Source: an uncultured Planctomycetota bacterium
GTDB lineage: Bacteria > Planctomycetota > Planctomycetia > Gemmatales > Gemmataceae
DNA length: 64,000 nt
Reading direction: 5' to 3'
NCBI GenBank assembly: GCA_963849325.1
Contig: CAWKHF010000006.1
Coordinates: 416,001-480,000 of the forward strand
The notes beneath the pieces were generated by a model. That model had not been told where the DNA came from. It saw only the letters and a list, made by a program, of their open reading frames with translations, and made no database searches. Shown piece after piece: positions 24,966 through 37,812 of the stretch. The translations under genes and the position numbers were made by a program. Within the stretch, counting starts at the first letter, position 1; each line of letters begins with the position of its first letter.

Positions 24966-25100
24966 CAAGTTGTTGCAGTAGACCCGCCATGCAGCTTTGC
25001 CACGCATTAGCGGTTTTTTAGCTCAATGCGTGGCAACTTTCCTCAATGCGTTGCAGGAAACGCGCCAGAACTGTAGTTCCAAAAAGCGAACATTTTTTGC

Positions 25101-25129
25101 TTGACAGGTGTCAACATTCCGGCTATCGT
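25101..25129 (+). promoter_or_regulatory. sigma70-like promoter with palindromic operator; probably leaderless mRNA
   Basis: TTGACA-17-TATCGT, palindrome TTGACAGGTGTCAA over the -35, ATG 6 nt after the -10. Confidence 0.6.
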
Positions 25130-25135
25130 TCCTGA

Positions 25136-25981
25136 ATGGGAAGGCCACGGCATCCGAATAAGCACATCGAGAAGGCCGTCCAATACGCGGAGGCTCTCGG
25201 ATGGCGCGTCGAGCTATCAAATGGTCATGCTTGGGGCCATTTGCTCTGCCCACAGAGTACCCGTGAAGGGTGCATTGTCGGGGTCTGGTCTACTCCCAAA
25301 AACGCTGAAAACCACGCTCGCCACATCCGGCGTGAAGTTGATATTTGTCCTCATGGAACACCTAGCAAAGGCAACGTTGAAGAACTACAGTGTGCAAGAA
25401 AAAAGGGGAGGGAAATGAAAACCGGGAAGCCGTGTGAGCGGGAGCACGACTTTGTCCTGGTCCTGACTGGCATTAACGAGTTGACGCCATCAGTGGAGGA
25501 AGCTCTGTTTGAGGCCGGCTGCGATGACGCTACGCCTAGCGTCCGATTCGGTCGAGTATACCTAACCTTCTCGCGTTGTGCCGCATCTCTGAAAGATGCA
25601 ATCCTGAGCGCAATTCAGGACGTGAGGGCGGCCAAGATCGGGGCAGATGTACTCCGAGTCGATCACTGCAACCTTGTCACGCAGGCCGACATTGCCCGTA
25701 AAATCAACCGAAGTCGGCAGCTTGTTCATCAATACTACACTGGAGTCCGTGGCCCTGGCAACTTCCCGCCCCCGGTTTGTCACATATGCGATGAGTCGCC
25801 ACTTTGGTATTGGTGCGAGGTTGCCTATTGGCTTTGGGAGAACGACATGATTACAGAGGATGTGTGTCGGGAGGCTGAACATGTCGCCTTCATCAATACT
25901 GTACTAGAGCTTAAAAACCAACGAGAGATTGATCCGAAGTTAGCAGAAGAGGTACTCCAATCAATCGGTGCAGCTCAGTAA
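25136..25981 (+). CDS. HicA-like toxin domain + HicB-like/HTH antitoxin domain (one ORF as sequenced; internal RBS+ATG at 25415)
   Basis: HPNKHIEKAVQYAEALGWRV...GHAWG...VWSTPKN; second half EALFEAGCDDA, LVTQADIARKINRSRQLVHQY, FPPP. Confidence 0.65.
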   Translation: MGRPRHPNKHIEKAVQYAEALGWRVELSNGHAWGHLLCPQSTREGCIVGVWSTPKNAENHARHIRREVDICPHGTPSKGNVEELQCARKKGREMKTGKPCEREHDFVLVLTGINELTPSVEEALFEAGCDDATPSVRFGRVYLTFSRCAASLKDAILSAIQDVRAAKIGADVLRVDHCNLVTQADIARKINRSRQLVHQYYTGVRGPGNFPPPVCHICDESPLWYWCEVAYWLWENDMITEDVCREAEHVAFINTVLELKNQREIDPKLAEEVLQSIGAAQ

Positions 25982-25999
25982 GTTTTTGCTTCCAGTATG

Positions 26000-26034
26000 C
26001 GGCAAGTCCCAGTCTAATAAGCCGGGACTTGCCG
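26000..26034. terminator. Hairpin between convergent genes
   Basis: CGGCAAGTCCC...GGGACTTGCCG followed by TTT. Confidence 0.6.
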
Positions 26035-26035
26035 T

Positions 26036-27321
26036 TTAACTAGGTCGCTGCATTCTTAGGATCATCCCCGCGCCGTCCTGTCGCTCCTCCGGCTCCTCAT
26101 CCTTCCAGAATACCGGCACGATGCCAAGCGTTTCTTGCTCCTGAATCAAGCAGGACAGGTTGTGGCAGAGGATTTTGCACAGCACTTCGTTGACCATCGA
26201 CATTTCGTTCTTGCTCGCCACCCTGTCGCCGAACTTCCGCTTGATGGCGCGAGAAGGTGATCTCGACGTTGCTGCGCTTGTGATAATGGGTCATGTACTC
26301 TTCCTGGTTGCACTGAAAGTAGTGGTAGGCTTTCTCGAAAGCGCCGCCAATCGCGCCCGTGCTGTTGGACTTGAAGGCAATGAACGCCTGCCCGCCGCAA
26401 GCTGCAACCTCTTCAAAGTTCTCCACGGAAAGGTAAGCCTTGTCGGCGCTCACTTCGCCGATCTCAAAATGCGTCTTCGTCTCGCGGACCAGCGGGACGA
26501 ACTGAGGGCAATCATGGGCATCCTTGTCCAGAATGCGGACGGCAGTAACGACATTCGTTTTCACGCCGGAGGCGATATGCGTCTTGACCCAGATGCCGCG
26601 CGTCCGCGTGACGCCGTACTTGTGGTCGTACCAGCGCTCGTAGACGGCAAGTGCTGAACCCGCTGCTGTCGATGGCGAAGTCTTTTTCGACCGGATCGCA
26701 ACGGACGGGCCTTTCGCCGACGAGCTGCTTGAGAACCGGCGTGTAGTACGGGTCTTCCATGAACGTTGTCGCCTTCATGCCGGGAATCAGCTTGCGGGTG
26801 AATCCTTTCTCGTAGGCTTCCTGCAAGGTCTGTGGAGAAGCGGCGGGCGCTGTAAACCGCAGTAAACCTTGTAGGCCATCGTGAAGACGGCATCACTAGA
26901 ACGCGTGCGGCTTCGTGCCCGTCGTGCTTGCCGGCCGCTGCGCGATCTGGCACGACGGCGAGCAGAGGTCGTGCAAGAGGACGCGGAGGCGGCGCTTCTC
27001 CGTGGCTTGCGCCATGTTGTACTTCGGCCAGTCCTGCTTGTAGGTCTTCCGCTCGGTGAGCGTAATCGTCTTCGTCTCAATCACGGTGCCATCCGGCAGC
27101 ACATCCCTCTTGTGGACGATGGACGCGGCGTAGAAGTGCTTGCAGGTGTTGCCGCCGTCAACGTGATCCAGGCAAGTGCAGGTCTTCGCTTCCAGGTTGA
27201 CGCGGTACGTCGCGTTACCGCTCTTGTTGGACTGGCTCGGCACAAGCCAGGTGCCGTCGTTCATGCGGTTCAGCCGACAGGTCGCCGCGATGATGAGTCC
27301 ACGCTGCTCTCTGGCGTCCAT
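26036..27321 (-). CDS. Transposase: N-terminal SWIM zinc finger + IS4/IS5-clan DDE domain; frameshifted
   Basis: CTCLDH...CKH (SWIM); FAIDSSGF, HDCPQF, ADKAY, YHKRSNVE.TFS (YREK-like). Confidence 0.85.
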
Positions 27322-27357
27322 TTTCTCAATCTCCGGGACAACGCTCTTGTCCACATT

Positions 27358-27386
27358 ATTGTATACACCGGAGACAGATTTGTAAA
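27358..27386 (-). promoter_or_regulatory. sigma70-like promoter of transposase 1
   Basis: TTTACA-17-TACAAT on the minus strand, embedded in repeated TGTNNAC motifs. Confidence 0.55.
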
Positions 27387-27443
27387 CATATTGGTAGACA
27401 GTTTTCCTAGTTTTTCTCGGCTTTTTTCGTAATCGCTTGCCAG

Positions 27444-27677
27444 TTACAGAAGGTCTTTCAGGTTCCGGTTGATGGCCCAAGCAAAGTCGAGAAGAGTGGA
27501 AAGACGGGGATCGTAGTCCGATTCAGGATTGAGCAGGCGAGACACTGCCTGCCGTGCCCCTCCCTTAGCAAGCCCCATGCGGAGGCCGATCTCTTCCTGC
27601 GTCATGCCGCTTTCTTCGGCTGCCTGACGCATTCTCTGTCGGACAGAGGCGACCGCGAGATGGTTCACCTTCCCCAT
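27444..27677 (-). CDS. XRE-family HTH regulator
   Basis: GMTQEEIGLRMG...AVSRLLN...DPRLSTL. Confidence 0.85.
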   Translation of the reverse strand: MGKVNHLAVASVRQRMRQAAEESGMTQEEIGLRMGLAKGGARQAVSRLLNPESDYDPRLSTLLDFAWAINRNLKDLL

Positions 27678-27808
27678 GTTGTAAGTCTACACCTTCGTAG
27701 TCATTCGGGCAACATGAACGTTGGCAACAGTAACTGCCACGAAAAGACACCCTGCTGTGGAGAATGGTCCTCGTAACTCCTTTTGCGTCACCGTCTTGCG
27801 ATGTTCTA

Positions 27809-27837
27809 TTGACATAAGCCCTTATCGAGCTTACAAT
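27809..27837 (+). promoter_or_regulatory. sigma70-like promoter for the methyltransferase-PIN genes
   Basis: TTGACA-17-TACAAT. Confidence 0.6.
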
Positions 27838-27888
27838 TAGGACGAGTGTAGGAGCACTAGATGCCCCCGTCCTCAGCTGAGGTCCGGT

Positions 27889-30445
27889 GTGAAATTCACA
27901 AGCGCAGTGCAGGAGCAATCATTCCGCGCGGTGCTGCGCGCGTTGGAGCGGTTGGGTTACACTCGCGACGTTTTGTTGAAAGAGGAGTATCCCTTCGACG
28001 ACTGGTTCTTGCCCGGCAACCAAGAGCGAGTCGCCCCAGCCGTGGCCTTCGGCCAGACCCCTCTCGCTTACGACAGCGCTTGCTTCGCGGTGGTGGTGTC
28101 CAACGGCCAGCAAGGCCCCGAACTGGTCAACCAGTATCGTGCCTTGGGTGCCCCCCTCGCTATCGAAGTTCGCCCTGACAAGGTAGTACACTGGCGAGTC
28201 AGCCGAGCCATGTCGGCTGGAGATGAGCAGTTCGTCATCCCCCCGGATCGGGTAGAGGATGCCTTCCAGGAGAATGCGCACAAGTGGAACCCGGAAAGTG
28301 TTTTTCGGGCAAAGAACATCGCCGCAACATCTCCCCGCCAAGCCGACTTCGTGGACCTCGGCTTAATCCCTGCACTGGAGCAACACGTTCGCGCCAAACT
28401 CGATCCCTTGCTGCGGGAGGTATTGCACGCGGGGAAGAAGGAGTATGAATACCGCAAGGGAGGACCGCCGGACCCAGACAAACTGTACCGCCTTGTATTC
28501 CGGACCCTCGCGGGGAAGATGATGTCTGAGCGGGGGGTGTTAGGCTTCCACTCGGCCAACGGTGCGCCGAACGCCCCGGATCTCTAGACAAGGTTGCCAA
28601 ATTCTACAGTGATTCCCAGCCGGTCGTTGCCGATGTGTCAACCCAACGGGTTGTCGTGGAAAGGCTGTGGCAGAGCATCAGCCTGAGAAATCTGTCCGTC
28701 GAAGTGCTGGCGTTCGTCTGGGAGAACACCCTTGTAACCAGGGATATTCGCGAGGAACGAGGCATTCACGCCACCCCGCCCAGCATCGCCCGATACCTCG
28801 TTCACCGCCTGCCTATCCAAGACATTCCACAGGCTGAGCGGCGCATTGTCGAACCTTGCTGTGGGAGCGGCACGTTCTTGGTTGCGGCCCTCCAGCGACT
28901 GCGTGAACTGCTACCGCCTTCGATTGACCCGCGGAGTCGGCACAAGTATTTCACCGACATGCTCAGCGGGTTCGACAATGAAACCTTCGGCTTGGAGGTG
29001 GCGCGTCCAGCCTAATGCTTGCCGACTTCCCGAACCCGAACGGGTGGGCGCTCGTCGAGGAAGACGTTTTTGGGACGCCCGAGCAGTCGCCGCAGTTCCA
29101 CGCCGCTTTGCAAGCAGCCCGCGTGGTTCTGTGCAACCCGCCATTCGAGCCGTTCAAGCCACGGGACCGCGCTTTGTACGAGTTACGCTCCGTCCATAAG
29201 CCGGTGGAACTATTGCAGCGAGTCCTCGACCAACTCGGAAATCAGGGGCTTCTTGGCTTCGTACTTCCCCAGCAACTACTCAATGGGGTGAGTTACCGCA
29301 GCATTCGAGAGAGACTGGCCGAGCGGTATGAAGAAATCGAGTTGGTCGGCTTGCCGGATAAGGTCTTCGAGAAGTCTGAACACGAAACAGCTCTCCTGCT
29401 GGCGAAGGTCCCGCGAACCCATCGGGGGCCGCTGTCCATTCTCCACCGCAAGGTCGAGGACAGGGGTTGGCCTCTCTTTAACGCTTACTCCCAGGTCAGC
29501 CGAGAAGACGCCGGAGCCAAGACCCCAGCGCAAGCATCCGACAACATCGGGATACCCGACCTCCAAAGCATCTGGACGCGCACTGGCCGGATCACCCACG
29601 GTCGGCGATGTTACGGGCGGGAACGTCCACCGCGGCATCGAATGGAATCTTCCACTGGACGAGAACAAGTGAGCTGTTGATCTCCAAGGCTGCACAGCCC
29701 GAATATGGCGCGGCGTGCCGCGTGCGCGAAGAGGCTTTTACTCCTACCAGTGCCCATCTCTCTCATACCTCTGCATGAAGGAGGAGTACCGAAGAAGGAA
29801 CGCTTTCAACTTGCCTTGGAATCTACCCAAGGTAATCATGAACGCGAAGCGGAAGTGCGCGGTCCCTGGCGGATTGCGGCATACGCCGACGAGGCCGGAC
29901 TGGTTTGCTACCAGACGTACACCGCCCTGTGGCCGTCTGGGGATTGGACTGCGACGGCTCTGGCCGCAGTCCTCAACGGGCCGGTTGCGAATGCGTTCGT
30001 TGCGTCCCACGAAGGCAATCGTGACATCACCGTCGAGACAGTCAAGGCAATTCCGGTTCCGCCGCTGACGAATGCCCTGAAAGGGGGGCTTACGAAGTTG
30101 GTAGCCGAGTATCGGACAGCCGCCGAGCGAATGGAGCTTGAAGTCAGGTCGGGCGAGCGCTCAGCGCGCGACATCCTTCGCGAGATTGACGCGGCCATCC
30201 TGAGAGCCTACGACCTCTCGCCTAGGCTCGAACATGAACTGCTCAACTATTTCAGCGGGTATGGCACGAAGAGGCCAGTGCCCTTCAACTTCGGCGACTA
30301 CTACCCGGCCGACTTTAGCTCGCATATCCCCTTATGGATGTTTCTCTCGCCAGAGTTCCAGAGAGGCAACCCGCAGGACATCTTGTCGAAAGCTCCTAAG
30401 ATCACCGATCCGGCATTGATCGACGCATTCCGTGAAGTGGAGTAA
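27889..30445 (+). CDS. N6-adenine DNA methyltransferase, type IIG/Eco57I-like architecture; several frameshifts
   Basis: GIHATPPSIARYLV, motif I EPCCGSGTFL, motif IV NPPF, GFVLP, TRD-like LAAVLNGPVAN...IPVPP, EIDAAILRAYDL. Confidence 0.8.
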
Positions 30446-30451
30446 CCTGCT

Positions 30452-31010
30452 TTGCCAAACGGAAAACTGCTCGACAATAACGTGATTTCGGTTCTTGCGA
30501 GTGCCAAGGACCCAAGGAGGCCGATAGCGGAGGCACACCTAGCCGCGTCTGGTTTCGGGCCGATTGTCTTTCCGTGCATCGCTATCGGCGAAATCGAATT
30601 TGGGATGATGAAGGCGACAAACCCAGACGCGGCACAACAGGCGAGCATGAGGGCATTCCTTAAGCGCTATCCGATTCTCCCTTTCGACCATCACACCGTC
30701 GAACCGTATGCGATGATTCGCGCAAAAACTCTGGCTCATGTTCGGCACTGCGAAGGTGCGCGGTCACGCCGAAAAACTCCCAGAAGAGTTGAAAGACCGC
30801 GCAACAGGACTCTGCCTAGGTATCGATGAACGAGACTTACTCATCGCCAGCATCGCGGTAGCGTTTAACCTATTCCTGGCGACGATGGATCGCAATGACG
30901 GGATGCGGCGGATTGAGGCAGCTGCGGCGGTCCTTGAAGCAGAAGGCAAGCCTGTTTGCCTCCGGATTGAGGATTGGTCGAAACCGTTGCCCGGCGCGTC
31001 TGACTATTGA
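30452..31010 (+). CDS. PIN-domain (VapC-like) nuclease; frameshift near 30728
   Basis: LLDNNVIS, IAIGEIEFG, GIDERDLLIASIA, LATMD, IEDW. Confidence 0.82.
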
Positions 31011-31126
31011 GTCAAAACGTTGCAGACCGCCTCAAAACGTTGCAGCTCGCCAATGCGTTGCAAAGCTCCGCCATGCAGCTTTGCCACGCATTGACACTTT
31101 TTCACGTCAATGCGTGGCAACTTGCC

Positions 31127-32428
31127 TCAATCCGTTGCAGGCGGCGAAAACCGTAGGACCATCCGCGCGCTGTCCTGTCGCTCCTCTAGCTCCTCATCTT
31201 TCCAGAAACCGGGCACGATGCCAAGCGTTTCCTGCTCCATGAATCAGGCAGGACAGGTTGTGGCAGAGGATCTTGCAAAGCACTTCGTTGACCATCGACA
31301 CGTTCGTTCTTGCTCGCCACGTCTGCCCCGAACTTCCGCTTGATCGCGGAGAAAGTGCGTTTCGACGTTCCACCGCTTGTGGTAGTGCGCCATGTACTCT
31401 TCCTGGTTGAACTGGAAGAAGTGAAACGCCTTCTCGAAAGTGCCGCCAACCGCGCCCGTGCGCGTTGGACTTGAAGGCGATGAACGCCTGCCCGCCGCAC
31501 TCGGCGACCGCCTCAAAGTTCTCCACGGATGGCGTAAGCCTTGTCCGCGCATCACTTCGCCGATCTCGAAGTGCTTCCGCGTCTCGCTTGACCAGCGGGA
31601 CGAACTGCGGGCAATCGTGGGCGTCCTTGTCGAGAATGCGGACGGCCGTAACGACGTTCGTTTTGACGCCGGAGGCGATGTGCGTCTTGACCCAGACGCT
31701 GCGCGTCCGCGTGACGCCGTACTTGTGGTCGTACCAGCTTCTCGTAGCCGCGAGCTGCCGAAGCCGCTGCTGTCGATGGCGAAGGCCGTTTCGAGGGAGC
31801 GGAGCGGGCGGGCGCTGTCGCCGATCGAGTTGCTCTGAGGATCGGCGTGTAGTACGGGTCTTCCGCGAACGACGTCGCCTTCATGCCGGGAATCGGCTTG
31901 CTGACGAAACCCATCTCGTAGGCTTCGTGCAGGTCCGTGGTGAAGCGGCGGGCGCTGCAGGCCGCAGTAGACCTTGTAGGCCATCGTGAAAAGGGCATCG
32001 CGAACGGCAGTGCGGCTTCCTGCCGGTCGTGCTTGCCGGCCCGGTCGCGGGCCGGGAGACGGGAGCAGAGGTCGTGCAAGAGGACGCGGAAGACGGCGTT
32101 TCTCCGTCGCCTGCGCCACGTTGTACTTCGGCCAGTCCTGCTTGTAGACCTTCTTTTCGGTGAGGGTGATGGTCTTCGTTTCGATGACGGTGCCGTCGGG
32201 CAGAACGTCGCGCTGGTGGACGATGGAGGCGGCGTAGAAGTGCTTGCAGGTGAAGCCCGCCCTCGGTGTGGTCCGGGCAAGTGCAGGTCTTCGCTTCCAG
32301 GTTGACGTGATAGGTAGCGCGTCGCCGCCTTGGTGGACTGGCTCGGCACAAGCCAGGTGCCGTCAGGCCAGGCGGTTGAGCCGACAGGTCGCCGCGATAA
32401 TCAGGCCGCGCTGCTCTCTGGCATCCAT
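31127..32428 (-). CDS. SWIM-DDE transposase, second diverged copy; many frameshifts
   Basis: MDAREQRGLIIAATCRL, CTCPDH...CKH, FAIDSSGF, YHKRWNVE; stop codon lies in the left-end repeats. Confidence 0.85.
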
Positions 32429-32563
32429 AGCGATTGCCTTCCATTGAAGGGCGGAATCGCGTAGAATGAATCTTATGCGAGGTCGCATTCTGGCGCTGAT
32501 CCGCCGGACTGTGATCTGCTCAGCAGCCGTTAGCGCGGCTGCTGAGCGTTTCGGTTTCTGCAA

Positions 32564-32637
32564 GGTGCATGACGGGAATCGAACCCGCAACCCTCCGACC
32601 ACCAATCGGTTGCTCTGCCTGTTGAGCTACATGCACC
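32564..32637 (-). tRNA. Atypical tRNA: GGT at the anticodon position with His-like G-1:C73
   Basis: G-GTGCATG TA GCTC-AACAGGCA-GAGC A ACCGA-TTGGTGG-TCGGA GGGTT GCGGG-TTCGATT-CCCGT CATGCAC-C folds as a cloverleaf; no encoded CCA. Confidence 0.8.
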
Positions 32638-32698
32638 ATCGGGTTAGACGGAAGGCAGCACTTCCGTCTAACCCATCCTCCTCCCTTACCTTGATATG

Positions 32699-32726
32699 AT
32701 TATATCGCTATCAGGGTAAAAATCAA
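32699..32726 (-). promoter_or_regulatory. sigma70-like promoter for the tRNA and transposase 2
   Basis: TTGATT-16-TATAAT on the minus strand; direct repeat CTATCAG; divergent TTGACA-17-TAGGAT at 32768. Confidence 0.6.
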
Positions 32727-32820
32727 GCCTATCAGCCTTCTTTCTCAAGAATTTTTCGAGCCAGTTCTTGACATGGCCCGATTGCCTGGATAGGATTTAT
32801 CGAGAAAGGGGGATTTTGTC

Positions 32821-33619
32821 ATGGCGGCAAGCGAGGAAAAGAAACGCACGCGAAGCCCAGCCTACCCAAGCATTGATCTTAAGGAAGCGATCCATTACGC
32901 GGAGACGGCGTACAGCGAGGAAGACCACCACGCATTCACTCCAGAGGCGGCGGCGGAACACTGGGGCTACAAGTCCACCAGTACGCGCCGTGAGCCAAAT
33001 AATTTCGGCACTGAAGCAGTTTGGCTTGCTCATTGAAGAACACGGTAACGAGGTTCGACGGGTTCGACTATCGCCGCTAGCTCTTGATCTCATAGTCCAT
33101 GAAGACGAAAGCGATCTACAGAGGAGAGATTTGCTTAAGACTGCGGCCCTGAATCCGAAAATCCATCGAGAAATTTGGGACAAATACGGTGGCAAGTTGC
33201 CCTCCGATACTTCCCTGAGAATCTATCTTCTGCGGGAACGGGAAGGATCGCCCTTCAACAAAGATCAAGTCGATAGGTTTATCAGCCAGTTACGGGAAAC
33301 AATCGAGTTTGCAAAGCTCGCTCCGGGTGATAAAATGTCCGAAGGGGGTGCTGCTACGGTCGATTCAGTCGAGGAAGACAGCAACGGCGACGGTGACGTG
33401 GATGAAGGCAAGCAGCGCTCTCCGCAGCGGAGACGAGCGATGCAGACAGGGCTTAAAGAAGACGTTTACACATTGGATCAGGGGCAGGTCGTCGCCATCC
33501 AGTGGCCCGAAAAGATCGACGCGGGCGAGATTGAGGACGTAGCGGACTGGATGCAGTTGGTCATCAAGAAGATGAAACGCTCCGCTCAACAGGAAGAGAC
33601 AAAGGAATTTGCTGAATAA
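32821..33619 (+). CDS. Hypothetical protein, possibly winged-helix DNA-binding; frameshift near 32985
   Basis: RSPAYPSIDLKEAI then ISALKQFGLL; own promoter and RBS. Confidence 0.6.
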
Positions 33620-33889
33620 GCGGATGCGATCCACACAAGAAGTCCGGCCAAGCAGCCGGGCTTCTTCCTGCGCCTCTGCGTCCGCCCGCTCTGCGTGGCG
33701 GGCTAAGGGATCACCGGCGAGAGGTCTCAAAGTCCAGAAACGCCAATGATGCGGAGGGCGCAGTAGCAGAGGTAAGCTTGGATGGAGGAATCGCTCTTGC
33801 TGTACAGTCGTATCGGTGAGTAGACTAAGACAAAAGGAGAGCGTGGTAGCGCTCTCCTTGTCCCACACAAACCTGTTCAGGAGGTCGGT

Positions 33890-34666
33890 GTGACTACAAG
33901 TCATCCTATCGTTCGACGCCGTTTCGAGCAAGGTGTCCTTGTCTTCGACTACGGCGAAACACACGTCCGTTGCGGCGGAACTGCTGACAAGCCTTGGTTC
34001 GTCGCCAAGGACATGTGCGAGGTTCTTGGGATCTCCAACCACAGCGACGCCATCGGCGGGCTGGATGACGACGAGAAAGGTGAGGTCGCTATTGCCGACC
34101 CCATCGGCAGAAAGCAAAAGACGGCAATAGTTTACGAATCGGGTCTCTACCAACTTGTCTTCCGGTCCCGCAAACCCGAAGCCAAGGCGTTTCGCAAGTG
34201 GGTCACGTCCGAAGTCCTGCCTTCGATCCGCAAGACCGGCTCGTACCGCGCTCGGGAACGCCAACGGTATCAGCAGTTGGGTCTATCTCCTGAATGGATC
34301 GAAAAGCGCGAGGAAGGAATCGCTGCCCGGAATCAGTTCACAGACACCCTCAAAGAACATGGAGTAACGGAGGGGCGAGATTACGGTCGCATCACGAACA
34401 CGCTCTATTACCCAACGCTCGGCGGTGCGGCTGCCGCCGTCCGAAGTCGCCTAGGCATTCCCGTAAAAGCAAGCATTAGAGACAACTTGCCACTGCTGGA
34501 GTTGTTTAAGGTGGGCATGGCCGAATTGCTAGCTCAACGAAAGATCGAAGTAGAAAATCGACAAGGCTTCGATGAGTGCAATCAAGCCACGGCGATGGTG
34601 GCCAACAACGTCGCCAACGCCGTGAAGCAGACCGAAGAGGGCAAACGGCTGCCTCCTTCCGAGTGA
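33890..34666 (+). CDS. BRO-N domain (phage antirepressor-like) protein
   Basis: PWFVAKDMCEVLGISN, ESGLYQLVFRSRKPEAKAFRKWVTSEVLPSIRKTGSY. Confidence 0.92.
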   Translation: MTTSHPIVRRRFEQGVLVFDYGETHVRCGGTADKPWFVAKDMCEVLGISNHSDAIGGLDDDEKGEVAIADPIGRKQKTAIVYESGLYQLVFRSRKPEAKAFRKWVTSEVLPSIRKTGSYRARERQRYQQLGLSPEWIEKREEGIAARNQFTDTLKEHGVTEGRDYGRITNTLYYPTLGGAAAAVRSRLGIPVKASIRDNLPLLELFKVGMAELLAQRKIEVENRQGFDECNQATAMVANNVANAVKQTEEGKRLPPSE

Positions 34667-35035
34667 ATGAAAATCGGGCCGACCAGTTATGCTTGGCATA
34701 ACTGGTCGGCTCTTTCTCTTGCCGTCCGTGGATCGCCAATCCGTTGCAGCCGACCGAATTTCGTTGCAGGTGCCCAAAGCGTTGCAAAGACCCGCCATGC
34801 GATGGATGCTTGCGCGTCATCACAGCTCATCTCGCGTAAGCCGGTTGCTGGGCGCGGTGACGCCCTGGTTGAGGCATCTTCCACCTTTGTTGGCTTTGCC
34901 GTCTGCACGCTTCCCGCAGTCCTTGCTGCGAAAGCCTTATCCCGCGTCGTCCGCGCGGCCTTGTTCCGAGAGGCTGGAGAAGTTAAGTTAAATTTTCCGT
35001 CTCCGGCACTCCCCCTTCCTCATCGAGGAGAACCC

Positions 35036-37812
35036 ATGAAACGCACCTTGCTGGTCGTGCTGCCCTTGGCGGCGCTAACCCTCGGCCTGTTCGGCCACGC
35101 CGCTCCGTCGGGGCATTCGTCCGATGATCCGCCGAAGAAGTTCGAGGACTTCGACAAGGTCGTCAAGGGGGCCAAGCAATACGACGGCCTGTTCCGCCTG
35201 TTCCACAAGGACGAGCACCTGTACGCCGAGATCCGCACCGACCAGCTCGGCAAGCCGTTCCTCTGCCCCATCGCCATCGCGCGCGGCGCCGGCCTGGGCG
35301 GCTACACGCTCAACTTCGACGAGCAATGGGTGCTCCTCTTCAAGCGCGTCGGCGACAAGGTCCACCTGGTCCGCCGCAACGTCCACTTCCAGGCCAAGGC
35401 CGGCTCGCCGGCCGCTCACGCCGTCGAGACCACCTACACCGACTCGGTGCTGATGGCCCTGCCCATCAAGGCCATCAACCACGGCCACAACTCGCGTCCT
35501 GCTCGACTTCAACGACATCTTCATGACCGACTTCGCCCAGCTGAACCTGGGCTCGCTTCGACGCCAACCGCAGCACCTGGCACAAGATCAAGGCGTTCCC
35601 GCGCAACATCGAGCTGGAGGTGGCGGCCACCTTCGACGGCGGACGCGGCTTCTCGCTTCTTCGGCGACGACAGCGTCATCGACAGCCGCGGCAAGACCGT
35701 CGTCATCCACTACGGCCTGTGCCAGCTGCCCGAGCACGGCTATCAGCCGCGCCTGGCCGACGACCGCGTCGGCTACTTCCTCAGCGTCGTCAAGGACTTC
35801 AGCTCCGACAACGAGGACACGTCGTTCCTGCGCTACGTCAACCGCTGGCGGCTGGAGCGGGCCGAGCCGGTCGATCCCAAGCACCCCAACAAGCTGTCGC
35901 CGCCGAAAAAGAAGATCGTCTTCTGGATCGAGAAGTCGGTGCCCGACGAATACCGGGCGGCCGTGCGCGAGGGCATCCTCGAATGGAACAAGGCGTTCGA
36001 GAAGATCGGCTTCCGCGACGCCATCGAGGTGCGCCAGCAGGAGAACGAGGACTTCGATCCCGAGGACATCAACTACAACACGTTCCGCTGGATCACCACC
36101 GACCAGGGCTTCGCCATGGGGCCGTCGCGGGCCAACCCGCTGACCGGCGAGATCCTCGACGCCGACATCATCTTCGACGCCAGCATGGTCCGCTTCTGGC
36201 GCGAGGAGGCCAAGCTGTTCCGCGGCGACGGCAGCGCCGGCCAGCCTGATCCAGGCCACCCGCGCAGGGTTGGAGCCTGTTCGATCCGCCTGCGCGCCCG
36301 ATCGCCAGCGCGCAGGCTGTGATGGAAGGCTGGAACGATCCCAAGAAGGCGGAGCAGAACCGACTGCGCGCCCGCCTGCTGGCGACGCGGCAGGGTCTCT
36401 GCCAGTGCGGTGCCGCACATGCAGCTACGAGCTGGGCATGGCCGCCATGACGCTGGCCGCCAAGGGCGAGACCAAGCCCGGCGAGAAGCTGCCCGACGAG
36501 CTGATTCAGCAGGCCATCAAGGAAGTGACCATGCACGAGGTCGGCCACACGCTCGGCCTGCGGCACAACTTCAAGGCCAGCACCATGCTCAAGAACGAGC
36601 AGCTGCACGACACCAGCCATCACGCGCAAGCAAGGGCCTGGTCGGCTCGGTCATGGATTACGCCCCGATCAACCTCGCCCCCAAGGGCGTCAAGCAGGGC
36701 GACTACTTCAGCACGACCATCGGGCCCTACGACTACTGGGCCATCGACTACGCCTACAAGCCGCTGTCGGGCGGCACCGACGGCGAGGCTGGACAAGCTC
36801 AGGAGATCGCCACGCAAGGCGCCAAGCCCGGCCACGACTACGCGCACCGATGAGGACATGTTCAGCACGTCCGACCCGCTGGTCAACGTCTGGGACCTCG
36901 GCGCCGACCCGATGAAGTTCGCCCAGGACCGCATCCTGCTGGCCGAGGAGCTGCTCAAGGGGCTGGCCGACCGCGTCGTCGACAAGGGCGAGGGCTACCA
37001 GCGCGCCCGGCTGGCCTTCAACGTGCTGCTGGGGCAGTACGGCAACGGCGCCTACCTGATCGGCCAAGTTCATCGGCGGCGAGTACATGCACCGCGACCA
37101 CCGCGGCGACCCCAACGGCCGCGATCCGTTCGTCCCCGTCACGGCCGACAAGCAGCGCGAGGCGCTGAAGTTCTTGCAGGAGCACATCCTGTCGCGACAA
37201 GCACTTCCAGTTCTCGCCGCGGCTGCTGCGCCGTCTCGGCGCCGATCGCTGGCTGCACTGGGGCAACGAGATGGACGCGTTCGGCTCGGTCGATTACCCG
37301 CTGCACCAGCGCATCCTGAACATCCAGCGGATCGTGCTGGAGCACGTTTTCGACCGGCCGTGCTGTCGCGCATCCAGAACAACGCCGTGCAAGGCGGACA
37401 AGGACGAGAAGCCGCTGACGATCGCCGAGGTGTTCCGCGGCGTGACGGACGGCGTCTGGAGCGACGTGCCGGACAAGGACGGCAAGGAGGCCAAGCAGCC
37501 GCGTGTCCTCGTCGGTGATCCGCCGCAACTTGCAGCGCGAGCACCTGAAGAACCTGTACACCTTGGTGCTGGGCAAACGACAGCAGAACGATAGCTTCTT
37601 CTTCTTTTTCTTCGGCGGTGGCGACAGTTCGGTGCCGCCGGACGCCCGCAGCCTGGCGCGCATGCACCTGCGCGACATCGGCAAGCGCATTGACGCCACG
37701 CTCGGCGACAAGCAAGGCGACCGTGGACGACACGACCCGCGCTCACCTGGAGGAGTGCCGCGAGCGCATCGCCAAGGTGCTGGGCGCCTCGATGCAGGTG
37801 AATGAGCCGTAA
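35036..37812 (+). CDS. Zinc-dependent metalloprotease (DUF5117/DUF4953 type); many frameshifts
   Basis: Signal peptide, PRLADDRVGYF, WNKAFEKIGF, NPLTGEILDADI, HEVGHTLGLRHNF, SVMDY. Confidence 0.9.

Follow-up and report, generated by a model that had tools for sequence, protein, structure and literature searches.

A transposon-borne tRNA with a histidine-type acceptor end and a threonine anticodon upstream of a Gemmataceae transposase

The stretch of DNA analysed here, the window, comprises 64,000 nt from the genome of an uncultured Planctomycetota bacterium of the family Gemmataceae (contig CAWKHF010000006.1; the whole genome is G000). A tRNA gene at 32564-32637 on the minus strand of the window lies inside a transposon, Tn2, in front of the conserved leader of its transposase gene. 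The tRNA joins a threonine-like body and the threonine anticodon GGU to a histidine-type acceptor end, and we regard it as very probably a real, conserved cargo tRNA of mixed identity. It may serve deliberate misreading of the genetic code or may be a tRNA-shaped control element for the transposase.

A single tRNA was found in the whole window by ARAGORN, Thr(ggt) at 32563-32637 on the minus strand, and the Rfam tRNA model RF00005 had its sole gathering-level match in the window at 32564-32636 on the same strand (59.2 bits against a cut-off of 29, E 2.9e-10). The two registers are offset by one base because the acceptor helix has eight pairs, and the Rfam register is the correct one since U then falls at position 8. 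In this register, G-1 is position 32637 and C73 is position 32564; the acceptor strands are GUGCAUG and CAUGCAC, and UA joins the 5' strand to the D arm, which reads GCUC-AACAGGCA-GAGC and is followed by A. The anticodon arm, ACCGA-UUGGUGG-UCGGA, has an A27·A43 mismatch, GGU at positions 34-36, and then G37 and G38. The variable loop is GGGUU and the T arm is GCGGG-UUCGAUU-CCCGU. The first-pass annotation had proposed this cloverleaf with its G-1:C73 pair, TTGGTGG loop, GGT anticodon, G37 and A:A mismatch, and all of these features are confirmed. The tertiary positions, read by eye, are canonical (U8, A14, G18G19, A21, A15/U48, G46, U54-U55-C56 and A58). Anticodon stems of four base pairs are common, being reported for 5.6% of bacterial tRNAs in an excerpt of PMC13092985. 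No CCA is encoded 3' of the tRNA, as had been pointed out; this is no oddity, however, because a rough register script found CCA after none of the 92 tRNA genes of the genome. The tRNA with its flanks has no second copy in its own genome.

The unusual features of the tRNA recur in relatives. Among 41 related genomes, the nearest relative was a tRNA of genome G006, with 87% identity over 68 nt; it has the loop UUCGUGG, the same A27·A43 mismatch, a hairpin upstream and, in divergent orientation, an intact homologue of gene X, the uncharacterised gene that flanks the tRNA in Tn2. The next matches in these genomes were tRNA-Thr(UGU) genes with 81-83% identity. An exact pattern of loop plus body was then searched in family genomes, phylum genomes, viral contigs and metagenomes. 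It was present in 2 of 252 genomes of the family (G000 and G006), in 0 of 400 other genomes of the phylum, in no viral contig and at 11 metagenome loci. Four of the 11 are complete members (L025, L026, L027 and L028) and a fifth, L029, is a member cut by the contig end. Three loci proved to contain no tRNA (L030, L031 and L033), two are Asn tRNA arrays (L032 and L035), and L034 is an ordinary Thr(UGU) body with a G37 G38 loop. Apart from the window, five sequences therefore carry UU-N-GUGG on a Thr-like body, one in a related genome (G006) and four on soil-metagenome contigs.

The window tRNA was aligned with those of G006, L025, L026, L027 and L028. In this six-member alignment, 93.9% of the stem cells are paired, compared with 83.9% after shuffling, and none of 500 shuffles reached the observed value; double (compensatory) changes occur in 8 of 22 pairs, a number that 1 of 500 shuffles reaches. 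The acceptor stem is 100% paired, with five of its seven pairs covarying, and the D stem is invariant. When L034 was added to the six, 94.2% of the cells were paired and 12 of 22 pairs had double changes. The loop is UU-N-GUGG in all six members, with N being G, G, C, A, C and G, so that G35-U36-G37-G38 is invariant; U33 and the 7-nt loop length are kept, and 27:43 is unpaired in five of the six. The relatives score 49-62 bits with RF00005. Because five independent assemblies share the loop, an indel or an assembly error in it is excluded. The odd features of the window tRNA thus recur in five independent sequences with compensatory changes between them, and by this comparative evidence 32564-32637 is a genuine tRNA gene, its structure evidently kept by selection.

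G-1 and C73 are the main determinants of bacterial histidyl-tRNA synthetase (HisRS). According to the rough register script, G-1:C73 is found in 2 of the 92 tRNAs of the genome, the window tRNA and the housekeeping tRNA-His, and both start with G-1 G1 U2 G3. The acceptor end of the window tRNA carries the full bacterial tRNA-His signature, that is G-1:C73 together with G1-U2-G3. Across the six members, G-1 is present in all, C73 in five and U2:A71 in four. The body of the tRNA, in contrast to its acceptor end, is by similarity of threonine origin, the tRNA-Thr of the genus being the closest outside the family. Threonyl-tRNA synthetase (ThrRS) reads G35, U36 and the first two acceptor pairs, with G35 and U36 read strongly in E. 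coli; the Thr-defining acceptor pairs, G1:C72 and C2:G71, and A37, which carries t6A, are known from E. coli work. The Thr anticodon NGU, with G35 and U36, is present in 6 of 6 members. The other marks of a tRNA-Thr are replaced: the window tRNA has U2:A71 in place of the C2:G71 of the host Thr tRNAs (as do four of the six members), G37 in place of A37, and G-1:C73 where a tRNA-Thr has no G-1. Since the A37 expected in a tRNA-Thr is replaced by G, GUG is spelled at positions 35-37. GUG is the His anticodon, here one place out of register, and positions 34-36, where a tRNA-His has it, hold GGU. A histidine acceptor set is thereby combined with a threonine anticodon, as in tRNAs of dual identity. 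With a 7-nt loop and U33, the decoded triplet should be GGU, reading ACC and ACU. The host genome already has a Thr(GGU) gene.

In yeast mitochondria, addition of G-1 to a tRNA-Thr lowered threonylation 150-fold, and the same addition gave histidylation at 7% of wild type, as reported in an excerpt of PMC3113583. Given the identity rules of HisRS and ThrRS and these yeast G-1 results (PMC3113583), we consider histidylation the likelier outcome for the window tRNA.

The tRNA precedes the transposase in all five loci that have downstream sequence (the window, L025, L026, L027 and L029), and a conserved leader of ~135 nt lies between the two. The transposase is intact in L026 (441 aa), runs to the contig end in L025, is cut by another insertion sequence (IS) in L027 and has one in-frame TGA in L029. 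Gene X is divergent from the tRNA in the window, G006, L025 and L027. No transposase follows the tRNA in G006 and L028. The G006 tRNA is immediately followed by inverted-repeat-like words, read by eye, and G006 looks like a derivative without transposase that keeps the tRNA and gene X. Gene X was considered as an obligatory partner of the tRNA and rejected, since X homologues stand without a tRNA in seven loci (L013-L015 and L017-L020); gene X was matched in 5 of 151 genomes of the family.

A 271-nt stretch of this region has a folding z score of -5.0, a stability that none of 200 shuffles attained. On the minus strand, a sigma-70-like promoter facing the tRNA, TTGATT-16-TATAAT (32699-32726), matches the consensus at 10 of 12 positions, and the two hairpins that had been described beside the tRNA both appear in the minimum-free-energy fold. 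Hairpin 1 (32641-32674) has a perfect 14-bp stem and ends 3 nt before G-1; a hairpin of differing sequence stands at its place in G006, L025, L026, L027 and L028. Hairpin 2 (32518-32546) lies 17 nt past the 3' end of the tRNA. Its stem covaries and its loop (CGCTAA, CTGAAA or CTGTAA) is kept in L027, L025 and L026; on the plus strand, it has a terminator-like score. The conserved transposase leader, a 5' untranslated region at 32429-32517 on the minus strand, was aligned between the window, L027, L025 and L026 and folded, and it has a stem covering the ribosome-binding region. A leader related to that of the window is also visible in two transposase copies of the same genome, C5 and C6b.

Promoter-like sites facing the tRNA are present at the equivalent place in L027, L005 and L025. 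A second sigma-70-like promoter, at 32768-32796 on the plus strand, faces gene X, and divergent promoter-like pairs between gene X and the tRNA were seen in all four loci examined (the window, L027, L005 and L025). In the window, the stretch from the tRNA to the transposase ATG yielded no promoter-like site. Because of these promoter pairs and the lack of a site in between, co-transcription of tRNA and transposase is the simplest reading. The Met-Gly-stop micro-ORF (a minimal open reading frame, ATG-GGT-TAG) that the first-pass annotation had placed in hairpin 1 can be read at 32668-32676 on the minus strand. It is not conserved, being absent at the same place in L027 and L025, and is probably a chance feature.

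The transposase family has nine copies or fragments in the genome of the window, and three of these besides the window locus have a tRNA upstream on the same strand (L036-L038; RF00005 52.7-60.3 bits). The first, at C5:716835-716912, has the anticodon GCU on a class I body with 77% identity each to the host Arg(ACG) and to an Asn(GTT) of a tRNA array, and its D loop is of Arg type by eye. The second, at C6:234192-234279, has AGC on a class II body most like the host tRNA-Leu. The third, at C2:189639-189710, has UUA, the ochre suppressor type, on a Glu-like body ~1 kb upstream of the transposase; a further class II tRNA-like sequence, unscored, was seen at the C2 locus. In a scan of other genomes that left out L109, a same-strand tRNA lay within ~1.3 kb upstream of the transposase at 4 of 30 loci (one being the C5 copy) and at 3 of 39 further loci. 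Upstream of the transposase at four loci in three genomes (L071, L074, L093 and L037) stands a single Leu-like class II lineage with A73. Its anticodons are UUA, UCC, CCC and AGC, yet all four tRNAs share the loop frame Y-U-NNN-A-A, so from its bases this lineage looks like decoding-competent loops with switched anticodons. The overall pattern fits either decoders with switched anticodons or tRNA-shaped elements in which the anticodon is free.

The reading that we favour for the window tRNA is that of a functional cargo tRNA of threonine origin which has acquired histidine identity. A primary transcript would start at the promoter, take in hairpin 1, the tRNA and hairpin 2 and extend into the transposase leader. 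Cuts by RNase P and a 3' endonuclease would free a tRNA with G-1 retained, and its release would leave a transposase mRNA starting at hairpin 2. The mature tRNA would be charged mainly by HisRS, because G-1:C73 is the main determinant of that enzyme and G-1 repels ThrRS, and on the ribosome it would pair as GGU with ACC and ACU; histidine would therefore be put at threonine codons at some low level. We consider histidylation and mis-decoding of ACY codons by the window tRNA, as its bases would predict, to be plausible but short of probable. The idea of a mis-decoding tRNA, which the first-pass annotation had raised, gains weight from the conservation in relatives of both the G-1/G1-U2-G3/C73 end and the UU-N-GUGG loop.

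Several observations weigh against this reading. G006 has A73 instead of C73, and the anticodon stem of L026 is weakened by two mismatches. Both transposase copies of the window and its gene X are broken, and this transposon copy is decayed, so the window tRNA could be a relic. At L018 (G071:C4), gene X adjoins the transposase and the 546-nt gap contains no tRNA by ARAGORN and Rfam. Some of the other transposase-linked tRNAs have defects in their loops, namely C33 in L045, a 6-nt loop in L049 and C55 in L062. With G37 after U36, no t6A is possible and there is no TrmD site; decoding of ACY codons may therefore be weak. Each of the five genomes searched (G000, G006, G009, G001 and G005) yielded a single hisS match above the cut-off, none of them near the element. 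No HisRS paralogue was thus seen in these genomes, and so no dedicated synthetase of the kind known for tRNAProX, which is discussed below. Recoding of the element's own transposase by the tRNA was rejected: in three linked transposases, two of them partial (L026, the N-terminal part of L027 and L029), threonine occurs at 0 of 7 His-conserved columns and at no other column conserved to at least 80%. A tRNA that puts histidine in place of threonine should also be harmful to the host.

The main alternative is that the tRNA works in cis, its cloverleaf being kept solely for the cuts that RNase P and a 3' nuclease make in the transposase transcript. Such a module would set a hairpin-capped 5' end of the transposase mRNA, insulate the mRNA from outside read-through, or both; the RNA would stay outside translation and its anticodon would be irrelevant. 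We hold this to be possible, if doubtful. The suggestion of a tRNA-like processing signal had also been made at first pass, and it too gains weight, in that the tRNA, hairpin 2 and the leader precede the transposase with fixed position and orientation in 5 of 5 loci of the subfamily. The same-strand tRNA-like genes upstream of the transposase at 4 of 30 and 3 of 39 further loci, and at three of seven other copies in the genome, point the same way. Hairpin 2, 17 nt past the tRNA, would become the 5' end of the mRNA after 3' processing, and in the copies C5 and C6b, where a further promoter-like site separates tRNA and leader, an equivalent hairpin opens the leader by eye. The anticodons of the linked tRNAs also vary widely, with some loops defective. 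However, acceptor and T arms suffice for RNase P and 3' processing, and a purely cis-acting module leaves unexplained the invariant D stem, the canonical tertiary positions and the retention of U33, the 7-nt loop and the GUGG; nor is it obvious what G-1:C73 would do in processing. In G006 the tRNA persists although the transposase is missing, and most copies of the transposase family have no tRNA.

An ordinary additional tRNA-Thr(GGU) on a mobile element, charged by ThrRS and reading ACC and ACU, with G-1:C73 and G37 as tolerated quirks, is unlikely in our judgement. The Thr-like body and Thr anticodon, the strong reading of G35 and U36 by ThrRS in E. coli and the frequent carriage of tRNAs by mobile elements would suit it, as would L034, in which the same G37 G38 loop sits on an ordinary Thr(UGU) body with U73. 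Yet the C2:G71 determinant has become U2:A71 in four of the six members and G-1:C73 is kept in five, and the host already has a Thr(GGU). The loop on such a body was found in 0 of 400 genomes of the phylum and 0 of 250 remaining genomes of the family. G-1 is also a strong anti-determinant of ThrRS where it was tested, by an excerpt of PMC3113583.

An untranslated RNA acting in trans, either as decoy or sponge of HisRS or of a nuclease that targets tRNAs, or as some other cofactor of the element, seems less likely still. The full L-shape is conserved, GUGG is invariant with position 34 free, and the neighbouring transposon has a PIN-domain gene (30452-30829; weak Pfam match, 5.9e-4), all of which would fit such an RNA; but in the six loci the tRNA is linked to neither a nuclease nor any other partner, and gene X resembles a DNA-binding regulator at best. 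That the gene is a decaying pseudogene, or its loop a product of misassembly, is very improbable and largely refuted: every protein gene at ~25-37 kb in the window is frameshifted, but the same loop occurs in five other independent assemblies, the stem changes are compensated and the Rfam scores are high.

If the favoured reading is extended to the other linked tRNAs, the IS5-like/SWIM transposons of Gemmataceae would carry and diversify decoding-capable tRNAs in which identity and anticodon are mismatched. We put this forward tentatively. Its proposed members are the His-acceptor/Thr-anticodon tRNA, the Leu-like class II tRNAs with Ala, Gly and ochre-stop anticodons and the Arg-like tRNA with the Ser anticodon GCU. 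Since these mismatched tRNAs each stand in front of a transposase, the transposons would spread programmed mistranslation or stop suppression, and the window tRNA would be the one that puts histidine at ACC and ACU codons.

Compared with a bacterial tRNA-His (GUG), the window tRNA has the same G-1:C73 pair, 8-bp acceptor helix and G37, and G1-U2-G3 as in the host tRNA-His, whereas it has GGU at 34-36, its D arm, variable loop and T arm are of Thr type, and the overall identity is 70%. It shares the anticodon of a bacterial tRNA-Thr, and its body is 81-83% identical to the Thr(UGU) of the same genus; it differs in having G-1:C73 where the host Thr(UGU) and the chromosomal Thr(CGU) have U73, U2:A71 for C2:G71, G37 G38 for A37 A38 and an unpaired 27:43. 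A bacterial parallel is tRNAProX (ProA, ProT and ProN) of Streptomyces and Kitasatospora, natural tRNAs of dual identity, Thr anticodons among them, for which an excerpt of PMC10404621 gives mistranslation as shown. In these too, identity and anticodon belong to different amino acids (same excerpt, PMC10404621), but they have a Pro body and are usually found beside a special ProRS, whereas for the window tRNA the pair would be His/Thr, a single HisRS gene was found and the gene is borne on a transposon. The yeast mitochondrial tRNA-Thr1(UAG), which arose from a tRNA-His, likewise involves a His/Thr switch through G-1 and the anticodon loop (excerpt of PMC3113583); it went from His to Thr by loss of G-1, however, and has an 8-nt loop, an organellar setting and a fixed codon reassignment.

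Like the tRNA genes and arrays of phages and mobile elements, the window tRNA is cargo redundant with host genes. It is unlike them in being a single tRNA at a fixed place in a DDE transposase leader, with a conflict between identity and anticodon. In the full texts searched, no tRNA in a transposase leader and no bacterial His/Thr hybrid tRNA was described, though supplements might hold cases. To our knowledge, natural tRNAs that misread the code are found in very few systems, with tRNAProX as the main bacterial case and none known in a transposon. If the window tRNA is charged with histidine and reads threonine codons, it would represent a second, independent type of bacterial dual-identity tRNA, and mobile elements would be shown to be able to carry code-altering tRNAs. 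If it is a processing module instead, it would be a new route by which an insertion sequence shapes its transposase mRNA. In both cases the locus is a compact, testable system of a single promoter, tRNA and transposase, and it offers a natural experiment on the discrimination between His and Thr identity.

The G+C content at 25-35 kb is 0.52-0.60, compared with ~0.65 in the remaining window. Two transposons, Tn1 (24993-31067) and Tn2 (31077-34791), stand here in tandem in the same 9-bp target, their exact ends being given by three GTTGCA-rich repeat blocks. The direct repeat CCGCCATGC at 31068-31076 is the target duplication shared by both, with further copies at 24984-24992 and 34792-34800. 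Directly after the first two CCGCCATGC copies comes AGCTTTGCCACGCATT(A/G), and inverted forms stand before the last two, CAATGCGTTGCAAAGCT (16/17) and CAAAGCGTTGCAAAGAC (13/17). The left inverted repeat of Tn2, AGCTTTGCCACGCATTG, is at 31077-31093 on the plus strand, and the same repeat is at 24993-25009 for Tn1. The right inverted repeat of Tn2 (34775-34791, plus strand) matches the reverse complement of the left one at 13 of 17 positions by eye and is preceded by three GTTGCA-type subterminal repeats (34737-34789); in L027, a repeat block like this right end also stands after gene X. The 17-bp inverted repeats of a sister element on contig C10 are of this sequence type and perfect, and its 9-bp flank repeat matches at 8 of 9 positions. 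With inverted repeats on either side (31077-31093 and 34775-34791) and the 9-bp flanks, the position of the tRNA inside the transposon, already noticed at first pass, holds. An integration remnant was also rejected, as the window has no second copy of the 3' half of the tRNA. Pairing of the anticodon loop with the target CCGCCATGC was considered and dropped: the match is of 6 nt with one G·U, is by a rough estimate expected about one time in four by chance, and the L027 flank differs.

Tn2 is ~3.7 kb long, with the gene order transposase (minus strand), tRNA (minus), gene X (plus) and Bro-N/anti-repressor gene (plus). The transposase gene (31154-32428, minus strand) was identified by homology as an IS5-like DDE transposase with an N-terminal SWIM finger and is a pseudogene with several frame breaks. 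The start that had been placed at 32428 agrees with the alignment, in which the ATG at 32428 is the homologous transposase start; the window ORF stops after 21 codons and continues in other frames. The frame breaks of this second copy were read partly from single-base alignment gaps. It is ~85% identical to copy 1 (26057-27321) from ATG to stop only. A tRNA region common to both copies was therefore rejected, because the two copies are homologous only from the ATG itself onwards and copy 1 lacks a tRNA.

The intact homologue in L026 matches PF01609 (9.9e-18) and SWIM (0.0015), while the NCBIfam IS5 models score below their cut-offs, at 102.5 bits against 140. The relation to annotated IS5 transposases is distant, the highest identity among the 10 plasmid records listed being 26.5%. 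Transposase homologues occur in 73 of 251 genomes of the family. The element has the DDE_Tnp_1 domain, terminal inverted repeats and target duplication of the IS5 family, from which it differs in its N-terminal SWIM finger, 9-bp duplication, cargo genes and structured leader. Single in-frame stops at positions 136-148 of the 441-aa transposase were seen in L029 (TGA), L046 (TAG), L063 (TAA) and L038 (TGA). This cluster accounts for four of the nine in-frame stops seen and falls in the stretch that joins the SWIM domain to the DDE domain. Programmed read-through or frameshifting might act there, so that a DNA-binding product is made apart from the full transposase.

Gene X (32812-33619, plus strand) has one frameshift in the window, with matches in two frames, and is intact in G006 (286 aa) and L027 (271 aa). 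It has no Pfam, NCBIfam or PHROG match; a possible winged-helix region is suggested by a weak match to that of Csa3 (E = 0.11), and its neighbours in the ESM Atlas are without names. The other cargo gene of Tn2, at 33890-34666 on the plus strand, is Bro-N/anti-repressor-like (PF02498, 3.2e-23; phrog_130, anti-repressor Ant, 2.2e-42). Tn1 belongs to the same family and has no tRNA. It carries a phrog_2620-like regulator/excisionase gene (25136-25981), the broken transposase copy 1, a small HTH gene, a frameshifted N6-methyltransferase-like gene (about 27889-30445) and the PIN-domain gene mentioned above. Just to the right of Tn2, a large zinc-metalloprotease-like gene (HExxH; 34667-37733) is split over at least three frames, and these splits reflect either a real pseudogene or local indel errors in the assembly.

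Elsewhere in the genome, three tRNA arrays of 7 to 13 genes each (C1:515629-516193, C4:433741-435175 and C12:838476-839555) are probably on mobile elements; among their genes are another tRNA-His, which lacks G-1, and a Thr(CGU) with C73. At L045, in another genome, an Rfam int-alpA RNA (351-419; 55.2 bits) lies ~700 nt upstream of the transposase-linked tRNA. The Thr(UGU) of L034 (3346-3418), with its loop UUUGUGG, adjoins a tRNA-Lys on a contig of small phage-like ORFs.

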